This document shows, one piece after another, positions 4,492 to 45,266 of a DNA stretch of 64,000 nt. A program made the translations under genes and the position numbers. The notes below the pieces were generated by a model that worked only from the letters and a program-made list of their open reading frames with translations, had not been told where the DNA came from and ran no database searches. The stretch is from positions 1 to 64,000 of the IMG/VR virus record IMGVR_UViG_3300036820_000003; one strand, 5' to 3'. Numbering within the stretch: the stretch's first letter is position 1; every line of letters starts with the position of its first letter. Source of the DNA: a virus.

Positions 4492-5215
4492 TGCCCCGGA
4501 TCCTCTCGATCATCCGACTGATGACCTCTGTGTCCCCATCCGGAACATCTACGTAAGTTCCGAGTTTACCTCCGACACGCTCCCCCGTCTCGTAGCCGGG
4601 AGCTGATCCGATGTAAAGTCTCCGGAACGAAATGCCTTCTTCCGTGACTCCCTGAGCTAGATATCCGACTATGTCCACGAAGTATGGCATCGTCGTCGCT
4701 AGTCGACCCTGCATGAACGGGTACCAGCTCCCGCCGTCGGGGCGTTGTGCGGCCATCGCGATGAACACCACCGCGTCCATCGGACGAATCGGATTGGTGA
4801 TGAGATCCCGGAACTTGCGAATCATATCCGATCCGATACGCAGCACGTCACCCCACTGCTGGACCTTGAGCTGCTGAGTGCCCGCAAGATCATCTATAAT
4901 TCTTTGCTGGCACTCTGAGATCGAGTCGATGATCACACTACGGAACGGGTGCTTGCCGGAGTTCAGCCACTCGAACGTCTTGGTCACGTCTTTGAACGAC
5001 CTGACCGGAACGATTGCGGTTTCCCATGAGCCATCAGCCTCGGGCGGCCCGCTTTTCGTCGGTTCCCACAGGATCTTCTTACTGGGGGTGAAGCGGCTGC
5101 CCGCCTCCGCGTCGAGCACCACCCGTGGAGCTGGGGTCGTGTCCCCGAGCCAGGATTTCCCCTGCTTCGGGTGGGAAAACACGATCATGTTGAGGCCGTA
5201 ATGCACGTCGGTCAT
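4478..5215 (-). CDS. AAA_24 / Sak4-like ssDNA-annealing ATPase
   Basis: Start placed at ATG 5215 (RBS GAAGGAGG). SHPKQGKS Walker A, VIIDSISE Walker B, QQWG and FIA motifs. Confidence 0.8.
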   Translation of the reverse strand: MTDVHYGLNMIVFSHPKQGKSWLGDTTPAPRVVLDAEAGSRFTPSKKILWEPTKSGPPEADGSWETAIVPVRSFKDVTKTFEWLNSGKHPFRSVIIDSISECQQRIIDDLAGTQQLKVQQWGDVLRIGSDMIRKFRDLITNPIRPMDAVVFIAMAAQRPDGGSWYPFMQGRLATTMPYFVDIVGYLAQGVTEEGISFRRLYIGSAPGYETGERVGGKLGTYVDVPDGDTEVISRMIERIRGSESV

Positions 5216-9352: not shown

Positions 9353-9833
9353 GCGGCCGGACTGGGACTCGTATTTCTTGGACATCTGCCGGGCGGTGGC
9401 GGCGCGGGCGGACTGCACTCGCCGTCGAGTGGGAGCCGTCATCGTCGATCGGAGCCATCGAATCTTGTCGTGCGGCTACAACGGCGCTCCCTCGGGGGAG
9501 CCAGGCTGCCTGAGTGACGGAGCATGCCCGCGCGGACGGCACTATCTCCTTGGTCGTGAGCTGCGACTGGACGCTTCCACAGGATCGCAGTGCGCCTGCG
9601 GAAACCGATGGCCGTGCCCGAATGCTGTGAGCCCGAGCAGCAGCTATGATTCAGGGCCGGGGACATGTCCGGGGATCCACGCTGAGATGAATGCGATAAT
9701 GTTTTCGAGCTGGGAGCCTCGTCAGGGCGGGGTTATCTACGTGACTTGCGTGCCGTGTCCCGGCTGCCGTAGGATGATCAGGGGGTCGGGGATCAAGCGG
9801 ATCGTGTGGCCGGAAGGAACTGAAATACTCTGA
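9339..9833 (+). CDS. dCMP deaminase (ComEB family)
   Basis: RPDWDSYF, VGAVIV, GYNGAP, HAEMNAI and PCPGC. Confidence 0.93.
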   Translation: MTVTERPDWDSYFLDICRAVAARADCTRRRVGAVIVDRSHRILSCGYNGAPSGEPGCLSDGACPRGRHYLLGRELRLDASTGSQCACGNRWPCPNAVSPSSSYDSGPGTCPGIHAEMNAIMFSSWEPRQGGVIYVTCVPCPGCRRMIRGSGIKRIVWPEGTEIL

Positions 9834-9840
9834 CTGGACG

Positions 9841-9910
9841 TTGCATACCTGCGCGCACTACTGTAGTGTAGCAAGTGTTAGCAGGTAGTCCCGTCCGCTG
9901 GGCGGACGGG
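9841..9910 (+). promoter_or_regulatory. Housekeeping-sigma-type promoter and 5' hairpin of the RAMP-like operon
   Basis: TTGCAT (9841) -17 nt- TAGTGT (9864); perfect 9-bp hairpin CCCGTCCGC-TGG-GCGGACGGG at 9890-9910; RBS AAGGAG before 9931. Confidence 0.6.
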
Positions 9911-9930
9911 GCTCCCCTTACGGCAAGGAG

Positions 9931-10629
9931 ATGCCCATGCCTGAAGAAGAGTCTACCATACAGAATGGCGTGGTAGCCATTAAGCGGATCGCCTCAGAGA
10001 CTATCTACGTTCCGTTGATCGGGACTTCGCCGCTCATCGTTAGCAAATTCTCGCAAAAGGCGAAGCGTCAGATGCTAGACGCACAGCAAGGACGAAAGAG
10101 CCCCCGGGAAGCGCGTAATCCGCAAGCGGAGTACGAGGCTTCCAAGTACGAGGGGAAGGACGACGGCGGGAACACCATCTACGGGTTCCCCGCCTCCGGG
10201 TTCAAGAACGCGACCGTCAGCGCGGCACGGTTCTATGGTCGGGACGTCAAGATGACGGAGCTACGGCAGTTCATCTTCGTCCGTGGACGCTACTTCCCGG
10301 AGGAGAAGCAGCAGTTCGCTGTCATCGAGGGCACCCCGAACATGCGCGAGGACTGCGTCCGCCTCGCCGGAGCCGGACGACCGGCTGATCTGCGTTATCG
10401 CGCGGAGTTCACTCCCTGGCGCGCTATTCTCGTAGTCACCTACGTCGCGTCGCTACTGTCCAAGGACTCAGTGCTGTCCCTCATCGACGCAGCGGGCATG
10501 GGCGTCGGGATCGGTGAGTGGCGACCGGAGCACAAGGGCGAGTTCGGCACGTTCCAGATCGACGAGAAGCGTGACCCGGCCGACATACTGGTTAATGTCA
10601 AGGCGTGCTACGGGGACGCCAATGGCTGA
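9931..10629 (+). CDS. Stand-alone RAMP/Cas7-like protein (Vipr-like candidate effector)
   Basis: IYVPLIGTSPLIV (first RRM strand), YGFPASGFKNAT (cf. RAMP iPgSslKGa), and C-terminal Gly-rich loop AAGMGVGIGEWRPEHKGEFGTF; upstream of the pentamer array. Confidence 0.75.
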   Translation: MPMPEEESTIQNGVVAIKRIASETIYVPLIGTSPLIVSKFSQKAKRQMLDAQQGRKSPREARNPQAEYEASKYEGKDDGGNTIYGFPASGFKNATVSAARFYGRDVKMTELRQFIFVRGRYFPEEKQQFAVIEGTPNMREDCVRLAGAGRPADLRYRAEFTPWRAILVVTYVASLLSKDSVLSLIDAAGMGVGIGEWRPEHKGEFGTFQIDEKRDPADILVNVKACYGDANG

Positions 10630-11044
10630 CCTGCGAACCGAGCTTGCCAAGATTTACGAGCAATACGGCAAGCTCACTGCGGAGATCGTGCTAGAGGAGG
10701 CAACTCCGGTAGACCACCCGCTTCACTCCCAATTCACCTGGGACGACAGCGAGGCAGCTCGCCTGTACCGTCTCGAAGAAGCACGACGACTCATCCGAAT
10801 CGTCCGGGATCCCATCACCACGTCCAGTGGTGAGGTGGCGCGCGTCCGAACGTATCACTCACTCCCTCAGGAGGGTGGTGACCGTGCCTATCAGTCTACG
10901 GATGACATCGTGAAGGACGATATCTCCACGCAGATTCTTCTCCGGCAAGCCGAACGAGAGTACCGTACACTCCTCACGAAGTACGGTCATCTCAAGGAGT
11001 TCATCGAGATGGTGCGGGCGAGCCTGCTCGAAGAAGTAGCTTGA
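10622..11044 (+). CDS. Conserved phage hypothetical protein, accessory gene between the RAMP gene and the array
   Basis: ATG overlaps the RAMP stop region; motif HPLHSQFTWDDSEAARLYRLEEARRLIR. Confidence 0.8.
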   Translation: MADLRTELAKIYEQYGKLTAEIVLEEATPVDHPLHSQFTWDDSEAARLYRLEEARRLIRIVRDPITTSSGEVARVRTYHSLPQEGGDRAYQSTDDIVKDDISTQILLRQAEREYRTLLTKYGHLKEFIEMVRASLLEEVA

Positions 11045-11049
11045 CATAA

Positions 11050-11703
11050 GTGTTACGGTGCGGTACGGCAGTCGAGTCAAGGCACGGAGTGTTCAGGCGG
11101 GGTTAGTTAGGGTTTGTTACGGTGATGTCTGGTGCGTCGGGTGTGGTTGAGCAGTCGAGGTGAGGTGTCGCGAGTCACGTCATGGCTTGGCGGTGTACGT
11201 CAGTCGAGGCGATGTACTGTATCGTGAGGCGCGGGTAGGTCATGTCCGTTCGGGTATGGTCAGGTAAGTCAGTCTAGGTGCGGTTTCGTGGGGTGTCGCG
11301 GGGACAGGTTAGGCTGGGTGCGGCAGTCAAGGCGATGTGCGGTTTCGCGGGGCACAGTCCGTTTTGGCATGGTGTGGCAGTCGCGGTGAAGTGCGGGTTG
11401 GCGGGGTCTGTTACGGTGTAGTCAGTTCGGGCGTGGTATGGTCGGGCAGTCTAGGTTTGGCTAGGTTGGGTCAGTTCGTGCGCGGTTCGGCGTGGCTTGG
11501 CGGTCACGGTACTGCGTGGCGTGGCTAGGCTCGGCAGTTATGGCCCGGCTTGGTAGAGTATGGTATGTCCTGGTGTGGTCAGGTAAGTCAGTTACGGCGG
11601 GGTTTGGCTTATCAAGGCGTGGCCCGTCAAGGTGAGTCATGGCAGTCCAGGTAAGGTGTGTTTGGGTCTGTCATGGTCAGGTCTGGTGGGGCAGTCAAGG
11701 TTC
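11050..11703 (+). repeat. GGY-NN pentamer array of 11 units, putative guide-RNA (vrRNA-like) array
   Basis: Delimiters (G/A)(G/T)C(A/G)GT(C/T)NN at 11067, 11150, 11199, 11268, 11322, 11376, 11445, 11499, 11533, 11587, 11641 and 11690. The last ten spacings are 49, 69, 54, 54, 69, 54, 34, 54, 54 and 49 nt (all 5n+4). Hand count: 58/90 pentamers are exact GGYNN and 87/90 have a pyrimidine at position 3. No credible ORF. Confidence 0.92.
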
Positions 11704-11721
11704 GGATGCTATACTTAGGAC

Positions 11722-13494
11722 ATGAGCGCACTCTCAGATGTCCAGCTCCACCTGATCACCAGTCTCGATGAGGCACTAGAACTCAAGCGCTGGCTGGGAG
11801 AGCGGCGCGAGATTCTCGCAGTGGACACGGAATCGTCCGGCTTGAGTCCCACGAGAGACAAGCTACGTCTTGTCCAAGTGGGAGATCACAAACAAGGCTG
11901 GGCGATTCCGTGGCCTATGTGGGGCGGTTTCGTAAAAGACATCTTCCGTGACTACGACGGACCAATTGTCATGCATAACCTCCCGCATGACTGGCGTTTC
12001 TTGCATCTTCAGGGGGATATCACACTCCCTTGGCATCGTCTAGATGATACATTGCTCATGGCTAGCCTTGACGATCCCGCCCGTCCCCGTGGACTCAAGC
12101 CCCTGTCGAAAAAACTTGTTGACCCCCGGGCGGATTCGGGTCAAAGAGCGCTCGATGATGGAATGAAGGCCGCAGGCTGGACATGGGCTACAGTTCCAGT
12201 AGACTTTGTGCCCTACTGGTATTATTCAGCACTCGACCCGGTGCTAACCGCTCACCTGTGGTCGTATTTGAAACCACGAGTGAGTCGTGATTGCCCTCTA
12301 GCGTACGATCTAGAACTAGGCACTAATCGGGTGTGCACTCAGATGATGCTACGTGGTATTCGACTCGATCGAGAATATGTAGCCGAAGCACAAGACAAAC
12401 TGGAAAAATACTCTAAGGATGCACGCTTCTGGCTTGATGCTGCTTACGGAATTAACAGCGTACTGAGCGCTAAGCAAATCTCAAGTGCTCTATCTTCACA
12501 CGGTGAGCCTCCTACAGCCTGGACTCCCACTGGCTTGCCGAAGATGGACAAGGAGTTTCTAACCCGCATTCGTGACTTCGGTCGGACCTCGGAGGCCCGC
12601 GAGATCGCGCAGCAGGTGCTCGGGGTGCGTCATGCTGAAAAAATGATCAGCTCTTACCTCGAAAATTTCGTTAAGCGCATGGATGACGATGGCATGGTAC
12701 GCTGCAGTATCTGGTCTGCGGAGGCAATCACGGGACGGATGAGTTGTACCGATCCCGCATTGCAGACTCTTTCGCGCGATGATACATTTATCCGTGGAAG
12801 CTTCATCCCCCGCGAGGGAAATGTCTTCATCTCCTGCGACTACTCGCAGGTTGAGGCGCGGCTGGCGGCGCATTATGGTCGCGACCTGGACATGATCCAG
12901 GCATTTCTAGACGCGGACGCGGGCGGGCCGGACTTTTTCACGACGATCGCCTCCCAGATCTACAACCGTCCGATCTCGAAGGCGGACATCGAACGCCAGT
13001 TCACTAAGAACGTCACCTACTGCACCATCTATGGCGGCGGACTCGAAAAGATGGCGAAGACCGGCGGGGTGAGTCCGGAGGTGATGGCCCCGGTGAAGGA
13101 GGGGTTCGACACTCGGTTCCCGGGGTTGCGCCGGTTCATGGCGGAGATCACAGCCGAAGCCAAAGAAACGGGCCGCCGGGAAGGTCGCCCGGCGGTCCGT
13201 TCTGGGATGGGACGCTACCTGCCGGTGGAGGAGCGCAAGGAGTACGTGGCGTCCAACCGGGTGATCCAGGCCGAGGCCGCCGAGGTGCTCAAGCGGGCGA
13301 TGCTCGACCTGGACGCGGCAGGGCTGGGCGAGTACATGATCCTCCCCATCCACGACGAGGTACTGTTCGATGTCCCTCGTGAGGAATCCGAGGAGGCGTG
13401 CAAGCTGATCGGTGATGTGATGACCGTGACGGACCGCTACCTGGTCCCGCTTACCGCTAAGGCCCAGATCCTTGAGGAGCGCTGGGCGAAGTAG
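11722..13494 (+). CDS. polA: DNA polymerase I (family A; 3'-5' exonuclease plus polymerase)
   Basis: VDTES, HNLPHD, CDYSQVEAR (motif A), RQFTKNVTYCTIYGGG (motif B) and IHDE (motif C). Leaderless start 6 nt after TATACT. Confidence 0.95.
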   Translation: MSALSDVQLHLITSLDEALELKRWLGERREILAVDTESSGLSPTRDKLRLVQVGDHKQGWAIPWPMWGGFVKDIFRDYDGPIVMHNLPHDWRFLHLQGDITLPWHRLDDTLLMASLDDPARPRGLKPLSKKLVDPRADSGQRALDDGMKAAGWTWATVPVDFVPYWYYSALDPVLTAHLWSYLKPRVSRDCPLAYDLELGTNRVCTQMMLRGIRLDREYVAEAQDKLEKYSKDARFWLDAAYGINSVLSAKQISSALSSHGEPPTAWTPTGLPKMDKEFLTRIRDFGRTSEAREIAQQVLGVRHAEKMISSYLENFVKRMDDDGMVRCSIWSAEAITGRMSCTDPALQTLSRDDTFIRGSFIPREGNVFISCDYSQVEARLAAHYGRDLDMIQAFLDADAGGPDFFTTIASQIYNRPISKADIERQFTKNVTYCTIYGGGLEKMAKTGGVSPEVMAPVKEGFDTRFPGLRRFMAEITAEAKETGRREGRPAVRSGMGRYLPVEERKEYVASNRVIQAEAAEVLKRAMLDLDAAGLGEYMILPIHDEVLFDVPREESEEACKLIGDVMTVTDRYLVPLTAKAQILEERWAK

Positions 13495-28552: not shown

Positions 28553-28635
28553 GCGTCGCTAGTCAAGGGGTCGGGGGAGTGCTAGACTTCAAGTCTCGCA
28601 CTCCCCCGTGTGTTCCCTTGACAAGGAGATTCTAT

Positions 28636-31278
28636 ATGGAAATTCGGCCCTTTGTCAACTCCGGACCCGAGATTCTCCCCCTGGACACGGATTTCTGGAT
28701 CCCGGACGGGTTCGAGTTCACGGGCTGCCGCTGGAATCACTACACACGCAAGAGGGCGCGGGACAACGACGGCCAGGTGACGTACGCCTACGTCAAAAAG
28801 TTCGCATTGGAAGGCGGGATCGGCAGCTACAAGTACGGCGAGCAGGTCGGCTACCCCTTGGACATCAAGTGCCAGGCTGGCCTGATCTGCTCCCCGCACA
28901 CGTTCTTCATGGTGGTCGAGTGTGACACCATCGAGCTTTGGGACGACTCAGTCCTCGGCGATGCAACCCCCACGGTACGGAGCCGTCGGGGGTTTCATTA
29001 CTATTTCCACGTTCCCGCCGGGCTAGTCCACCTGATGCCGACCGACGGGCCGATCTCGGGCGGCGACGTGCAGACTCGCGGTTTCGTGCCGTGTCCCGGC
29101 TCGGAGCACCCTTCAGGCGTGAAGTACGAGCTGGTATCGAACCGGATCAACGTGGCCGACTCCGACCTCCTGCACCGCATCAGCAAAGCTCGCGAAATTC
29201 GCAAGGCGCAGGAGCTGGAGGCGTACCGCAAGTCCGGGGGCGAGGGCGCGTGGTCCGGCGACGGCGGAGTTTACGGTCACGATGATTACCTCGCTAAGAT
29301 CGTGACCTGGAACGCCGTGTTCGAGGGCAAGACGGAAGACGAGGTGCGCTCAGTCTGGCAGGCCGAGGCGGCGGCATTGCCCCAGACTCCCGGCGATCCG
29401 TTTACCGAGGATGACTTCCAGCGTCATTACAAGGGAGCTGCCGACGAGTGGAAGATCCGACAGGCAGCCCGGTCCGAGACCGAGGTAATTGACGCCACTA
29501 TCATGGACTGGGTGCGCAGCACGCAGGGTAGCGGCGGATCTGGTTCCGGGGGTGATGGCGTCAGCATCAACGGATTCGAGGATGACGGGGACCGGTTCCT
29601 CCCCGTGGGCTATCGGCTCCCGGCCGACTACTCGCTGGCCGGGGGCGTCAGCCACACGACCAGGCACGGCAAGGACGAGGACGAGGAGCAGATAGCGCAG
29701 CTCCCCATCTACGTATCCGGTCTGGAGATCGACTCCGATGACGTGTCCTGGTACGAACTAACCTGGGAAACCCACGACGGGAGCGGCCGCAAGATCATCA
29801 TTCCGTCCGGGCACATCGCGGATCGGACCAATCTGATGCGTGCCTTCCCCGAGGTTGTGGTCACCACCAAAGGCGCGACCGCCGCAGCCGAGTACCTGGC
29901 GGCGTGCCGGAAAGTGAACGCGGACTGGCTGGCACAGGAGAATCGCACTCGCAGGGTCGCGCTCCGCCTCGGCTGGTACGGCAACCGGATCGAGGAAGGA
30001 TTCGTTTCCGGACCGGAACGCCCCTATCAAGTCCGTGATGTCGCTAACCTGGGCGGATGGCTTCAGGGGCACCGGCCTCACGGGCATCTCGCGGAGTGGA
30101 CGGCGATCCTGTCCCGCATGCCGATCCGGGTGGTGATGCTGACGGCGGCGGCGCTGGCCGCCCCGCTGCTCAAGATCCTGGAAGTCCCGGGGTTCGTGCT
30201 CGACAACTCAGGCGGCACCACGCAGGGCAAGACTCGGGCCGCTCGGGTGGCGGCGAGCGTGTGGGGTGATCCTGATCGGCTGCTGCTGTCGTGGTCAGCA
30301 ACGAAGGCAGCTCTGGAGATTCACGCCCAGAAGGCTAACGGAACGCCGCTGCTCATCGACGACTCGAAACTGGCGCGTGATGGGGAGCAGATCGCGGGAC
30401 TAGTGTACCAGGTCACCTCGGGCCTGATGACGGGCCGCCTGGAACGCTCGTCGGACCGCCTGCGCGGCGGCGATGAGATCAAAACGGTGATCCTGACCAA
30501 CGGCGAGACCCCGCTGCTGACCGCCGGTAAGTCAGGACGTCGTGACGGAGGTGCTGTCGCACGGGTGCTGGAGATGTGGGGAGCCCCCTTCGGGACAGCT
30601 GAGGAGGCAGACTCAGTCAACGCCGTCATCAGGGAGAATTACGGGCTGGCCGGGGAGGAGTTCGTGCGGTCAGCGCTGAAGACGGGGGCCGGGGAGCTGC
30701 GATCACAGTACCAGGAACTGAGACTGCTGGCGAGGGGGATGGGCACCACCGACGTCGCCCGGCGACGGGCTGACGCAGGTGCTGTCGTGATGCTGGCAGC
30801 GCAGATCGCTAACCGGGCGGGGCTTCTGCCCATCGTACCGACGGCGTTCTGGCCGACTTTGCTGGGCGAGGGCGCTGCCGGGGACAGTTCCGATGACCTG
30901 GCACTCGCTGCACTTGAGCTGGTGTGGGGCGAGGTCGCGTTCAACGACAACAGCTTCTGGCGTCCCGACTCCGGCGCGATCACCAACTCCTTCGATCGTC
31001 CTCGCGACGGATGGAAGGGCAGGTACGATCGGAAGGAAAGCTGGCTCGCGGTGAAGCCTGACTGGCTGGACAGGTTCCTGGCAGAACGAGGATTCGAGTC
31101 CGAGGGGGTTCGCCGTCAGTGGGACGACCGAGGCTGGACCGCCAAGGATACCAAGGGGCGCAGGAGCATCTCGATCAGAATCGCTGGTGAGGTGGCCCGG
31201 TGCGTCAAGATCATCCATCGCCCAGAATCTATCTCCACCGACTCATCGGCGATCGAGAATTCGGAAGCCGAGCTGTAA
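28636..31278 (+). CDS. Primase-helicase: N-terminal Prim-Pol (AEP), DUF927 and C-terminal helicase
   Basis: SRRGFHYYF and GFVPCPGSEHPSG.Y (Prim-Pol); LGW..FV, GGTTQGKT, SWSAT and LLIDD. RBS AAGGAG. Confidence 0.88.
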   Translation: MEIRPFVNSGPEILPLDTDFWIPDGFEFTGCRWNHYTRKRARDNDGQVTYAYVKKFALEGGIGSYKYGEQVGYPLDIKCQAGLICSPHTFFMVVECDTIELWDDSVLGDATPTVRSRRGFHYYFHVPAGLVHLMPTDGPISGGDVQTRGFVPCPGSEHPSGVKYELVSNRINVADSDLLHRISKAREIRKAQELEAYRKSGGEGAWSGDGGVYGHDDYLAKIVTWNAVFEGKTEDEVRSVWQAEAAALPQTPGDPFTEDDFQRHYKGAADEWKIRQAARSETEVIDATIMDWVRSTQGSGGSGSGGDGVSINGFEDDGDRFLPVGYRLPADYSLAGGVSHTTRHGKDEDEEQIAQLPIYVSGLEIDSDDVSWYELTWETHDGSGRKIIIPSGHIADRTNLMRAFPEVVVTTKGATAAAEYLAACRKVNADWLAQENRTRRVALRLGWYGNRIEEGFVSGPERPYQVRDVANLGGWLQGHRPHGHLAEWTAILSRMPIRVVMLTAAALAAPLLKILEVPGFVLDNSGGTTQGKTRAARVAASVWGDPDRLLLSWSATKAALEIHAQKANGTPLLIDDSKLARDGEQIAGLVYQVTSGLMTGRLERSSDRLRGGDEIKTVILTNGETPLLTAGKSGRRDGGAVARVLEMWGAPFGTAEEADSVNAVIRENYGLAGEEFVRSALKTGAGELRSQYQELRLLARGMGTTDVARRRADAGAVVMLAAQIANRAGLLPIVPTAFWPTLLGEGAAGDSSDDLALAALELVWGEVAFNDNSFWRPDSGAITNSFDRPRDGWKGRYDRKESWLAVKPDWLDRFLAERGFESEGVRRQWDDRGWTAKDTKGRRSISIRIAGEVARCVKIIHRPESISTDSSAIENSEAEL

Positions 31279-31755
31279 CACCTAGACCGTTAGAACGCCG
31301 GAGCTGTCACCTGGGGTGATAGTTCCGGCGTTTTCTATTCTGCTCGCTGACCTGCTGTAACCACCTAGAAGGTCGTGTAACACCTTCTGTAACCACCCTA
31401 AAACCGCCTCTGAGCTGCGGTTTCCCCTCGGTGTAACACCGTAACACCTAAAACCTTGTAGTCCTAGTGCGCACGCGCTTCTCTAGAGGGGGCCTGTAAC
31501 ACCGTAACACCTAGGTGTTACAGGAGGTGTTACGGCATAACCCCAGGTCACACACCTCTGTAACACCGTAACACCTAAATTCAGGTTTTCACTGTTGTAC
31601 CCGCAGGGGAATCCCATTTCCGTTTCCGTCCCGGGGTCGGGCCCTCGCGCGCCTACGCGCATATGCGTGAGTTATGTGTTACACGTGTTACGGTGTTACA
31701 CGGGCGTCTGACCTGCACAGACACCGTAACACCCTCTGTAACACCTTGTAACACA
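31274..31755. repeat. Iteron-rich candidate replication origin
   Basis: 16 exact GTAACAC words on both strands plus 2 variants. TGTAACACCGTAACACCT occurs three times (31432, 31495, 31559). Directly after the primase-helicase; purine/AT-rich at 31755-31800. Confidence 0.8.
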
Positions 31756-31840
31756 CAGAGAGAAAGATAATCAGAGAGTTAGAATTAAGTAGCAGAAAGT
31801 AATCCTTGCATGGGTGGAGAAGATCGTCTAGACTCAGTCT

Positions 31841-43754: not shown

Positions 43755-45128
43755 TCAGGGAATCATCATCGCGAACGCCGCCGTGTAGGGAAGCGTCCGG
43801 AACATGGAGTCGACGTTGTCGGGGATGAGCGCGACAGTCGGATCATCGACCTCCGCGCGCATGAACGGCAGGGCGGCGATGGTGCCGATGCCGTACATCT
43901 CCCGGTCCGGCAGCTTGCGGGCGACCGGGACGACGGACCCCCTGGAACCGGTGAAAACGGGCCAGGATGACGGACTGGGAACCGCCCTCATGTTCCCGGT
44001 GCGGGTGTTGCCCGCGCACACGACGACCAGGTCGTACTGGCGACGCGCCACGATGCCCCCGGCGGGGGTGTCGATTGGCTGCTCCTTGACCCGGAAGGTG
44101 CGGAGCCTGCGCTGACGGGTGAGGTCGGGGGTGTTCGGCGTGGAGAGGTCGACCGCCCGGGGAAGCTTGGCGCCGATCATCTGGTAGCGAGCCGGGGCGG
44201 TCGCCTTCCACTCCTGGCAGGTGCGCGGCAGGTTCGTGTTGTACCAGTCCACCTGGCGAATCCAGTCCAGGCCGGGCACGCTGTAATGCGACCCGAAGAT
44301 GTTCAGCGCGGACTCGACGGCGCAGTTCCCGGCGTTGCCCCTTCCGGCCCCGCCGCCGATGATCGCGACGGAGGAAATCCCCTGGAACGGGAAGGGCCGC
44401 GCCATCCGCTCCATGAACTCCCACCAGGTTTCCACGTGGAAGCGCACGTCAGGAAGCGCGAGGGCGCTCTCGTATCCCTTTCCCCGGGCGTCGACGATCC
44501 GGGCGGGGGTGATCTCCGTCCCGTTTGCAAGGCTGACCAGGTTGGTGTACCCTGAGCCGTAGGCGGCAACCGTTCCCAGCCGGACGTCCGCGTAGGCGGC
44601 GAGCGTCCAGCGAATGAGGAAGCGCATGGCGGCGTTCGTGGGGTAGTCGCCGGACTCCAGCTCGTTCGGCTGTACGACAGCGCCGGGGATGTAGTTGAGA
44701 TTAGCCTCCCGGGGCAGGCCGCCCATGCCGGGACGGGACGAGGAGTTCAGCCGGAAGACCGGCTTCCCGCCGCCGACTGCGAAGGAGCCGCCCGGCCGGT
44801 CAGTGATTACGACGGGAGGTTCTTCCCCCATCGCCGCTCGGCAGGCGGCGTAAACAGCGGAGTGGACGCCGCCCCCGATCACCAGGTCCTCGACGGGGGG
44901 GAAACCATAGATCCCGTACACCTGACCGGCCCAGTACTCGTCCAGGAGACGATCGGCGTACTCACGCGCGTCGGGATTCATGTAGATGGCGGCCAGAGTT
45001 GCGGCCCATGGGGTGCTGAACTCATCCTTCCGGGCTTCCATCAGCCCGATGAGCCGATTCTTAATCGGAGTCTTGCGAATCGTGTCCAGCGTCTTGGTGA
45101 ACCAGCCGGACGGGACAGCGAGCGCCAT
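43755..45128 (-). CDS. FAD/NAD(P)-binding oxidoreductase-like flavoprotein
   Basis: LVIGGGVHSAVYA and VAIIGGGAG dinucleotide-binding motifs, PGGSF, FRLNS and VDARGKG. Own promoter TAGGCT-GTTTAC at 45230-45241. Confidence 0.7.
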   Translation of the reverse strand: MALAVPSGWFTKTLDTIRKTPIKNRLIGLMEARKDEFSTPWAATLAAIYMNPDAREYADRLLDEYWAGQVYGIYGFPPVEDLVIGGGVHSAVYAACRAAMGEEPPVVITDRPGGSFAVGGGKPVFRLNSSSRPGMGGLPREANLNYIPGAVVQPNELESGDYPTNAAMRFLIRWTLAAYADVRLGTVAAYGSGYTNLVSLANGTEITPARIVDARGKGYESALALPDVRFHVETWWEFMERMARPFPFQGISSVAIIGGGAGRGNAGNCAVESALNIFGSHYSVPGLDWIRQVDWYNTNLPRTCQEWKATAPARYQMIGAKLPRAVDLSTPNTPDLTRQRRLRTFRVKEQPIDTPAGGIVARRQYDLVVVCAGNTRTGNMRAVPSPSSWPVFTGSRGSVVPVARKLPDREMYGIGTIAALPFMRAEVDDPTVALIPDNVDSMFRTLPYTAAFAMMIP

Positions 45129-45266
45129 AGGCTCTTCCTTCCTACCTTTCCTGCGGATCGCTCCTGCGAACCGCACCCGACCTGGCCCTGCCAGGTCGGA
45201 TGCCGCGCTCAGGGGCGGGTGCGCGTGCTGTAAACAGCCTAGCGGTCCCGAGCCCGGGAAACCAGG

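Follow-up and report, generated by a model that had tools for sequence, protein, structure and literature searches.

The window analysed here comprises the first 64 kb (64,000 nucleotides) of the complete IMG/VR record IMGVR_UViG_3300036820_000003, which is 129,940 bases long. Between positions 9841 and 11703, it holds a compact locus on the + strand that consists of two coupled genes, vipr and vap, followed by a long non-coding array of pentamers. A sequence-only reading of the window had likened this arrangement to VIPR (Viral Interference Programmable Repeat) systems. These were first described in three 2026 preprints, in which a RAMP protein, Vipr, and a vap gene are flanked by guide RNAs (vrRNAs) of 9-16 YNNGG repeats (bioRxiv 10.64898/2026.04.26.720920,.720927, 10.64898/2026.10.15.759431). 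The Vipr protein of the window proved to be homologous to that of Escherichia phage SUSP1, which bears the attribution out.

The first gene, vipr (9937-10629, +), encodes a single-RRM RAMP (Cas7-like) protein. The open reading frame (ORF) at 9931-10629, originally called as a 232-aa gene, is real; given that an AAGGAG box ends at 9930, however, the ATG at 9937 is the likelier start, yielding a product of 230 aa, the form present in the protein collection. This product belongs to phrog_4652, and neither it nor the vap protein was matched in Pfam, NCBIfam or PADLOC. A profile built from 111 homologues was compared with all PDB sequences and gave a sole match, to 36pp_D, the 'SUSP1 Vipr protein' (E 4e-13), in which residues 4-190 of the chain align with positions 24-203 of the profile; the same profile also matched gene agp039 of the SUSP1 genome. 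By single-sequence comparison, the only match to SUSP1 Vipr had an E value of 0.02 and covered residues 149-209, so that a profile is needed to see the relation. The family is large, with 3262 clusters at E ≤ 0.001.

A Vipr model built on the alignment reached a predicted local distance difference test (pLDDT) score of 94; a single-sequence AF2 model was dropped, with a pLDDT of 33. Using Foldseek and VIA-align, the top matches of the alignment-based model were all Cas7, Csm3, Cmr or gRAMP proteins. As judged from this model, Vipr has a RAMP/Cas7-type fold, as had been proposed from its sequence hallmarks. Vipr residues R157, E196, W197 and R198 align with R138, D177, W178 and R179 of the SUSP1 protein, i.e., they are kept or conservatively changed, while the alignment of the helical-bundle residue K33 to SUSP1 was unreliable.

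The second gene, vap (10622-11044, +; 140 aa; phrog_15946), is an accessory gene that is translationally coupled to vipr, its ATG at 10622 overlapping the vipr stop (ATGGCTGA), in agreement with the original description of a coupled 140-aa gene. The vap protein had no match in the PDB, and its neighbours in the Atlas were viral clusters without names.

The array extends from 11049 to 11705 (+) and holds about 115-135 units. Over 11049 to ~11705, identity at lag 5 was 0.45, as compared with ~0.25 at other lags, and no convincing ORF was found there. When a YNNGG score over nine consecutive units was computed for both strands, the threshold of 23/27 was reached only at 11078-11696 (+) and nowhere else in the window or in the 129,940-bp genome, on either strand. 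The sequence-only reading had described one array of GGY triplets alternating with variable dinucleotides (NN). Its 5-nt period and its co-orientation with the genes stood, but it is not one run. A phase-aware parse resolved it into ~13 guides. These are built of YNNG(G/T) pentamers and begin with the delimiter (G/T)CAGT, at which the register shifts. Slips of 4 nt occur at 11-13 places (CAGT, once CGGT), the first base of each slip unit also belonging to the final unit of the run before it, and the ~13 segments comprise 4-13 units (20-65 nt) with delimiters 24-83 nt apart.

The GGY triplets had also been called fixed. This is apt for the pyrimidine, present in 97% of the 115 units of the trimmed array, but overstated for the triplet as a whole, in which the first G is kept in 83% and the second in 83% (T in 17%); perfect units amount to 64%. 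A wider parse that includes the delimiter units gave 95% pyrimidine, 85% for the first G and 76% for the second. The NN bases, on the other hand, are compositionally mixed. Three consecutive guides, at 11274, 11328 and 11382 (together 11274-11421, +), have a common NN core, GC/TT/GG (Ala-Phe/Leu-Gly), and may represent a duplicated and diverged guide family. No Rfam family reached its gathering threshold in the window; for 9800-11800, a search at E ≤ 1 yielded only a chance match to a long non-coding RNA, and no hammerhead. At its 3' end, the array is followed directly by the ribosome-binding site (11706-11721) from which DNA polymerase I would be translated. No terminator-like site was found between the array and the polymerase ATG at 11722, and read-through of the array transcript into this gene is possible. 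Elsewhere in the window, five perfect YNNGG units (CCTGG, CAGGG, CCAGG, TCGGG, TGCGG) lie at 45171-45195 on the - strand, immediately upstream of where ORF 43755-45176 begins on that strand. A 7-bp hairpin (GACCTGG/CCAGGTC) overlaps these units, which are probably attributable to it or to chance, in preference to a solo vrRNA.

By tblastn, Vipr homologues were found at 54-58% identity in four Gordonia phages (UmaThurman, Pipp, Ecliptus, ODay), at 42-43% in 27 records of Mycobacterium phages and at 25% in the cyanophage Cy-LDV1. In culture, this Vipr clade is represented by Gordonia and Mycobacterium phages together with Nocardia and Rhodococcus genomes. Relatives P0002-P0005 are 72-74% identical, one of them on a 134-kb contig, and the closest locus compared, L006, has 72% identity. 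In all four tblastn loci examined, YNNGG runs lay on the strand of the gene and were interrupted by 4-nt slips, GCAGG being the delimiter unit. Amongst 17 IMG/VR loci, 16 had a full-length vipr match, and each of these carried such an array on the + strand but lacked one on the - strand; the remaining locus had a partial vipr match only. The association between Vipr homologues and pentamer arrays, which the sequence-only reading had named as a check, was thus present throughout: the 20 related loci whose vipr match is full-length all combine vipr, vap and an array, the array always on the strand of the gene, and a vap homologue adjoins vipr in every related locus. The order of the parts varies. 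It is vipr-vap-array in this phage and in loci L006, L012 and L020, vipr-array-vap in the Gordonia phages and array-vipr-vap in Saal. That the parts stay together while their order permutes is good evidence of a functional module. The L006 array comprises 20 guides followed by a strong terminator hairpin at 5140-5180, and CAGT also serves as delimiter at one place in L012, a 56%-identical relative.

These comparisons touch on two existing annotations. The UmaThurman gp40 'hypothetical protein' (L001 4140-4463) falls entirely within the vrRNA array and probably does not represent a gene. Saal gp51 (L003 3336-4082) is vipr, and its annotated start, ~50 codons upstream of the starts in relatives, directly abuts the array.

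The co-occurrence data also bear on a quite different explanation, namely that the repeats are no guide array but a G-rich minisatellite, or the leader of the polymerase operon, with a chance 5-nt period beside an unrelated RRM protein. In its favour, there was no RNA run among the public runs listed for the locus. It is nevertheless contradicted by the finding of the three parts together in 20/20 loci with full-length vipr, with permuted order and constant strand. Moreover, the protein is homologous to a Vipr that was solved with its vrRNA, and NN is mixed while Y and GG are constrained. We therefore regard the probability of such an origin as close to nil.

Targets of the guides were sought by matching the NN pair of each unit with the published 1-nt skip. 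Scans of sequence collections were made by exact match with the 1-nt skip only, and would miss targets at 80-95% NN identity. Within the phage's own 129,940 bases, no guide matched better than unit-shuffled guides at any skip length. In the viral contig collection there were no exact matches for the guides at 11274, 11593, 11328, 11539 and 11647, and in 596 billion bases of prokaryote genomes there were none for the two 10-unit guides at 11328 and 11274. In metagenome contigs, the ten-unit guide at 11328-11377 (+; AA/GA/GC/TT/GG/AC/CC/TT/AT/GT) matched six contigs at 20/20 bases with the 1-nt skip. All six matches lie in the sense frame of homologous ORFs of ~380 aa and encode the peptide KDAFGTPLIV. 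The skipped bases vary amongst the contigs (GAC/GAT, GGA/GGC/GGG/GGT etc.), whereas all 20 coded bases are identical.

The KDAFGTPLIV protein matched neither Pfam nor the PHROG families. A related coat or major capsid protein is encoded by two Rhodococcus tectiviruses, Toil and P19 (tblastn E 1e-10 and 5e-9; BLASTP E 1e-17), and the Atlas neighbours of the KDAFGTPLIV protein include double-jelly-roll capsids of the PRD1 P3 type and of nucleocytoplasmic large DNA viruses. Its family numbers at least 1896 proteins, found only on contigs of up to ~21 kb, and the protein had no relatives in the viral contig collection. On contig L057, the capsid gene follows a packaging ATPase-like gene, and a DNA polymerase is also present (PHROG E 4e-8; Pfam DNA_pol_B_2 just below the cut-off), as in Toil. 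The matched motif is among the most conserved of the family, with 55 of 120 cluster representatives being guide-compatible and 33 more off by one residue; Toil's own coat gene does not have it. In the six capsid contigs and phage Toil, no other guide of the array, and none of 107 guides from relatives, rose above the shuffled level. A guide of locus L012 (2470-2520), GC/TT/GG/TC/AC/TA/AT/GT, aligns to the same capsid site at 13/16, and is offered as a lead only. The contigs themselves (L052-L057) represent an abundant uncultured tectivirus-like clade with a double-jelly-roll-type capsid, packaging ATPase and DNA polymerase.

The 8-unit guide at 11382 was also considered as having a specific target, and was rejected: its 28 IMG/VR matches all read A-[DE]-A-[FL]-G-L-T-V in frame, but fall in unrelated ORFs of 43-831 aa, i.e., they represent a generic peptide word. 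In-frame matches of this kind in unrelated viral ORFs would suit a system that regulates the phage's own genes or those of the host, for temporal control or host takeover, and is not directed at rival viruses. The position of the locus inside the replication module, between the genes for dCMP deaminase and DNA polymerase I, and the lack of a terminator ahead of the latter would also be in keeping with such a role. Yet the phage genome was matched no better by the guides than by shuffled ones, two 10-unit guides found nothing exact in the prokaryote genomes, and the one clear match is a virus capsid gene. A regulatory role in place of interference accordingly appears unlikely to us, although it is the most credible of the competing explanations.

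Several observations weigh against reading the locus as a working VIPR system. Perfect YNNGG pentamers are less frequent here than in any other of the ten arrays compared (64% of 115 units, versus 75-98% in nine relatives), so that some guides may be decaying. H17 of SUSP1 Vipr, which contacts the first G, is replaced by Ser38 in the protein studied here, in its subclade and in 26 of 164 relatives checked. The vap protein showed no similarity to SUSP1 vap1 (agp038), the sole vap to have been experimentally tested (BLASTP E 0.48, hhalign probability 0.1). The public runs listed, as mentioned, include no RNA run, and staggered arrays are the one form without confirmation by small-RNA sequencing in the discovery paper (10.64898/2026.04.26.720920). 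Finally, only one of ~13 guides has a convincing match. Its six contig matches belong to one family and thus count as one event, and the chance rate of one 20-base match in the metagenome collection could be near 1. A true target is made likelier by the facts that the match is in frame, in a structural gene of a virus and on that protein's most conserved motif, and that the only cultured relatives of this lineage infect Mycobacteriales, the Vipr clade likewise having Gordonia and Mycobacterium phages and Nocardia and Rhodococcus genomes as its cultured carriers. On balance, we favour the view that the match of guide 11328-11377 represents a true target, albeit with some reserve.

Part of the same evidence could indicate a locus that is VIPR by descent but is now decaying or inactive, its array having drifted (degenerate GG, CAGT for CAGG) until no working guides are left. 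Besides the low share of perfect units and the replacement of H17 by Ser, several segments of only 4-6 units and the many guides without a match would fit this. On the other hand, both ORFs are intact and coupled, the pyrimidine is kept at 95-97% and the period over 650 nt, and the CAGT delimiter recurs in the relative L012. Internal degeneracy, with YNNNG and NNNGG variants, is moreover frequent according to the VIPR paper (10.64898/2026.04.26.720920), and a perfect 20/20 in-frame match of a 10-unit guide is not to be expected of drifting sequence. We consider a defunct locus very improbable.

Taken together, every defining VIPR feature that can be sought in sequence was found here, and the locus is thus a VIPR member of the staggered kind. 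We hold with high confidence that it is a VIPR locus with a staggered array of ~13 guides, at least one of which is probably aimed at a tectivirus-like capsid gene. Homology, fold, locus architecture, co-occurrence and an exact gapped match were all observed at this locus.

By homology to SUSP1, the steps from transcription and processing through filament assembly to silencing, together with the part played in ecology, would be as follows. The vipr-vap operon and the array would be transcribed together from upstream of vipr, and the transcript would be cut at or near each (G/T)CAGT delimiter to release ~13 vrRNAs. The delimiter presents a purine or T where the pyrimidine pocket is expected, followed by CAG, and may therefore mark the end of a filament. 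Each pentamer would have its own Vipr protomer, whose thumb arginine and G-loop (GEWRP) hold GG, and its pyrimidine would be held by the protomer that follows. Pairing with double-stranded DNA would be through the two variable bases, each third target base being skipped, and the resulting filament would block transcription. For SUSP1, the binding of one protomer per repeat, the pairing of NN with double-stranded DNA with each third target base skipped, and the repression of transcription have been shown, and natural VIPR targets include satellites, prophage regulators and other VIPRs (bioRxiv 10.64898/2026.04.26.720920,.720927, 10.64898/2026.10.15.759431). The earlier proposal that each subunit holds GGY and displays NN to a gapped DNA target, directed at competing elements, is what these papers report for SUSP1, and one guide of the present array appears to fit a gene of a rival virus.

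On the capsid gene, the filament would sit ~300 nt into the ORF and block its transcription. The skipped base coincides with the codon wobble position, so that diverged rivals would be recognised by one guide through a protein motif that they conserve, and synonymous drift would not free the rival. The match of guide to capsid motif points to virus-against-virus silencing, and the tectivirus-like target viruses probably share the host of the phage. We also put forward, tentatively and as a less than even prospect, a wider scenario in which a tailed actinophage carries hard-wired guides against viruses of another realm. Guide 11328-11377 would silence the double-jelly-roll capsid gene, the neighbouring guides with the GC/TT/GG core and the L012 guide would be copies that track capsid variants, and the CAGT delimiter together with the G/T second G would mark a Vipr subclade, with Ser for His17, whose recognition of the repeat is relaxed.

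The locus embodies no new principle, the VIPR class having been described in 2026, and represents a further member of it. Its value lies in being a clean natural example of a staggered array in a complete 130-kb actinophage, with a concrete candidate target. If the capsid match is true, the range of VIPR targets extends to a lytic-cycle structural gene of tectivirus-like viruses, and the match offers a handle on the code in a high-GC system. Repeat recognition and the cutting of staggered arrays could be studied through the natural variation that the delimiter and the relaxed GG show here.

The record, which carries direct repeats at its termini and has a G+C content of 62.9%, is the complete genome of a 130-kb soil phage of an actinobacterial host. 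Within its replication module, genes for a Sak4-like annealing protein, a helicase, DNA methyltransferases and dCMP deaminase (ends 9833) lie upstream of the locus, and genes for DNA polymerase I and a Cas4-like exonuclease lie downstream. A megablast search of GenBank phages with the locus gave no match. Among public runs, only two soil metagenome studies had DNA contigs with the locus (9841-11760). The contig from the first was identical across the whole of 9841-11760 and derives from the probable source sample, whereas the second study yielded an identical 569-nt piece at low depth; consequently, there is no natural variation from which to gauge the hypervariability of NN.

Ahead of vipr, a promoter-like site, TTGCAT-17 nt-TAGTGT (9842-9870, +), was recognised by eye and is weak, its second hexamer matching the consensus at 3/6 positions. 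A sigma-70 consensus scan of 9600-11900 reported no promoter, and the sequence-only reading went too far in listing one. Between this site and vipr, the leader contains a 9-bp GC-rich hairpin, CCCGTCCGC-TGG-GCGGACGGG (9890-9910, +), which is a candidate element of the 5' untranslated region or else may end the dCMP deaminase transcript as a U-less terminator.

At a distance from the locus, an iteron cluster at 31274-31757, TGTAACACC(GTAACACC), is the only spaced repeat in the whole genome. It occurs in both orientations, with five direct copies, three of them 63-64 nt apart, and several inverted pairs. The iterons lie in a 560-bp intergenic region directly after a primase/helicase gene (28579-31278) and likely form a replication origin or a regulator binding site. 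Just past the window, at 64874-64919 of the record, a hexamer repeat, CCCGCA, has at least six tandem copies.

Amongst known systems, TIGR-Tas resembles the VIPR locus described here in being non-CRISPR, phage-associated and RNA-guided against DNA, with repeat-structured guide arrays. It differs in using a Nop-domain protein and contiguous split spacers, and is not known to have a RAMP protein or a pentamer code. The class 1 CRISPR-Cas backbones, i.e., Cas7, Csm3, Cmr4, type VII Cas7 and gRAMP, share with Vipr the RRM core, the G-loop and the thumb, are its best structural matches, and likewise polymerise on guide RNA at a fixed step with periodic base flipping. Their step is 6 nt, in contrast to 5 nt here, where three of five guide bases are sequestered; in addition, CRISPR spacers are acquired, whereas the present guides are genomically hard-wired. 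The sequence-only reading had noted that Cas1, Cas2, Cas3, Cas5, Cas6 and CRISPR repeats are absent. For Cas1 and for CRISPR-like spaced repeats this held across the whole genome of 129,940 bases, while no individual search was made for Cas2, Cas3, Cas5 or Cas6.

Seven VIPR types (I-VII) and six vap families (vap1-6) have been distinguished (bioRxiv 10.64898/2026.04.26.720920,.720927, 10.64898/2026.10.15.759431). The type II VIPR of SUSP1 (36pp) has a Vipr that is homologous over nearly its full length, with the G-loop G-x-G-[DE]-W-R-P, the thumb arginine and a two-gene operon. In SUSP1, 9-16 pentamers make up a guide, the gapped code passes over the codon wobble base and the targets are in rival mobile elements, a mode of recognition that the present system would share. 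The SUSP1 locus, too, adjoins the phage's DNA polymerase and ligase genes. Unlike the present array, SUSP1 has separate vrRNA units, each with a 3' pseudoknot tail; its target is a satellite recombinase, whereas the candidate here is a tectivirus-like capsid gene; and its vap1 is not detectably related to the vap found here. Ribozyme-interspersed VIPR arrays differ in having hammerheads between the guides, none of which was matched here.

The closest counterparts are the staggered VIPR loci, which likewise combine a lone Vipr RAMP with one vap and back-to-back YNNGG guides with no structured tail or ribozyme, in viral genomes. In staggered arrays, neighbouring vrRNAs overlap by 1 nt (10.64898/2026.04.26.720920, Fig. 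5, fig. S18 legend), to which the 4-nt register slip at each delimiter here corresponds. The present array departs from its staggered relatives in its (G/T)CAGT delimiter, where all those compared have GCAGG except for part of L012, and in the T that stands for the second G in 17% of units. Many of the relatives also place the array between vipr and vap or upstream, whereas here it follows vap, in the replication module of a 130-kb phage with terminal repeats.

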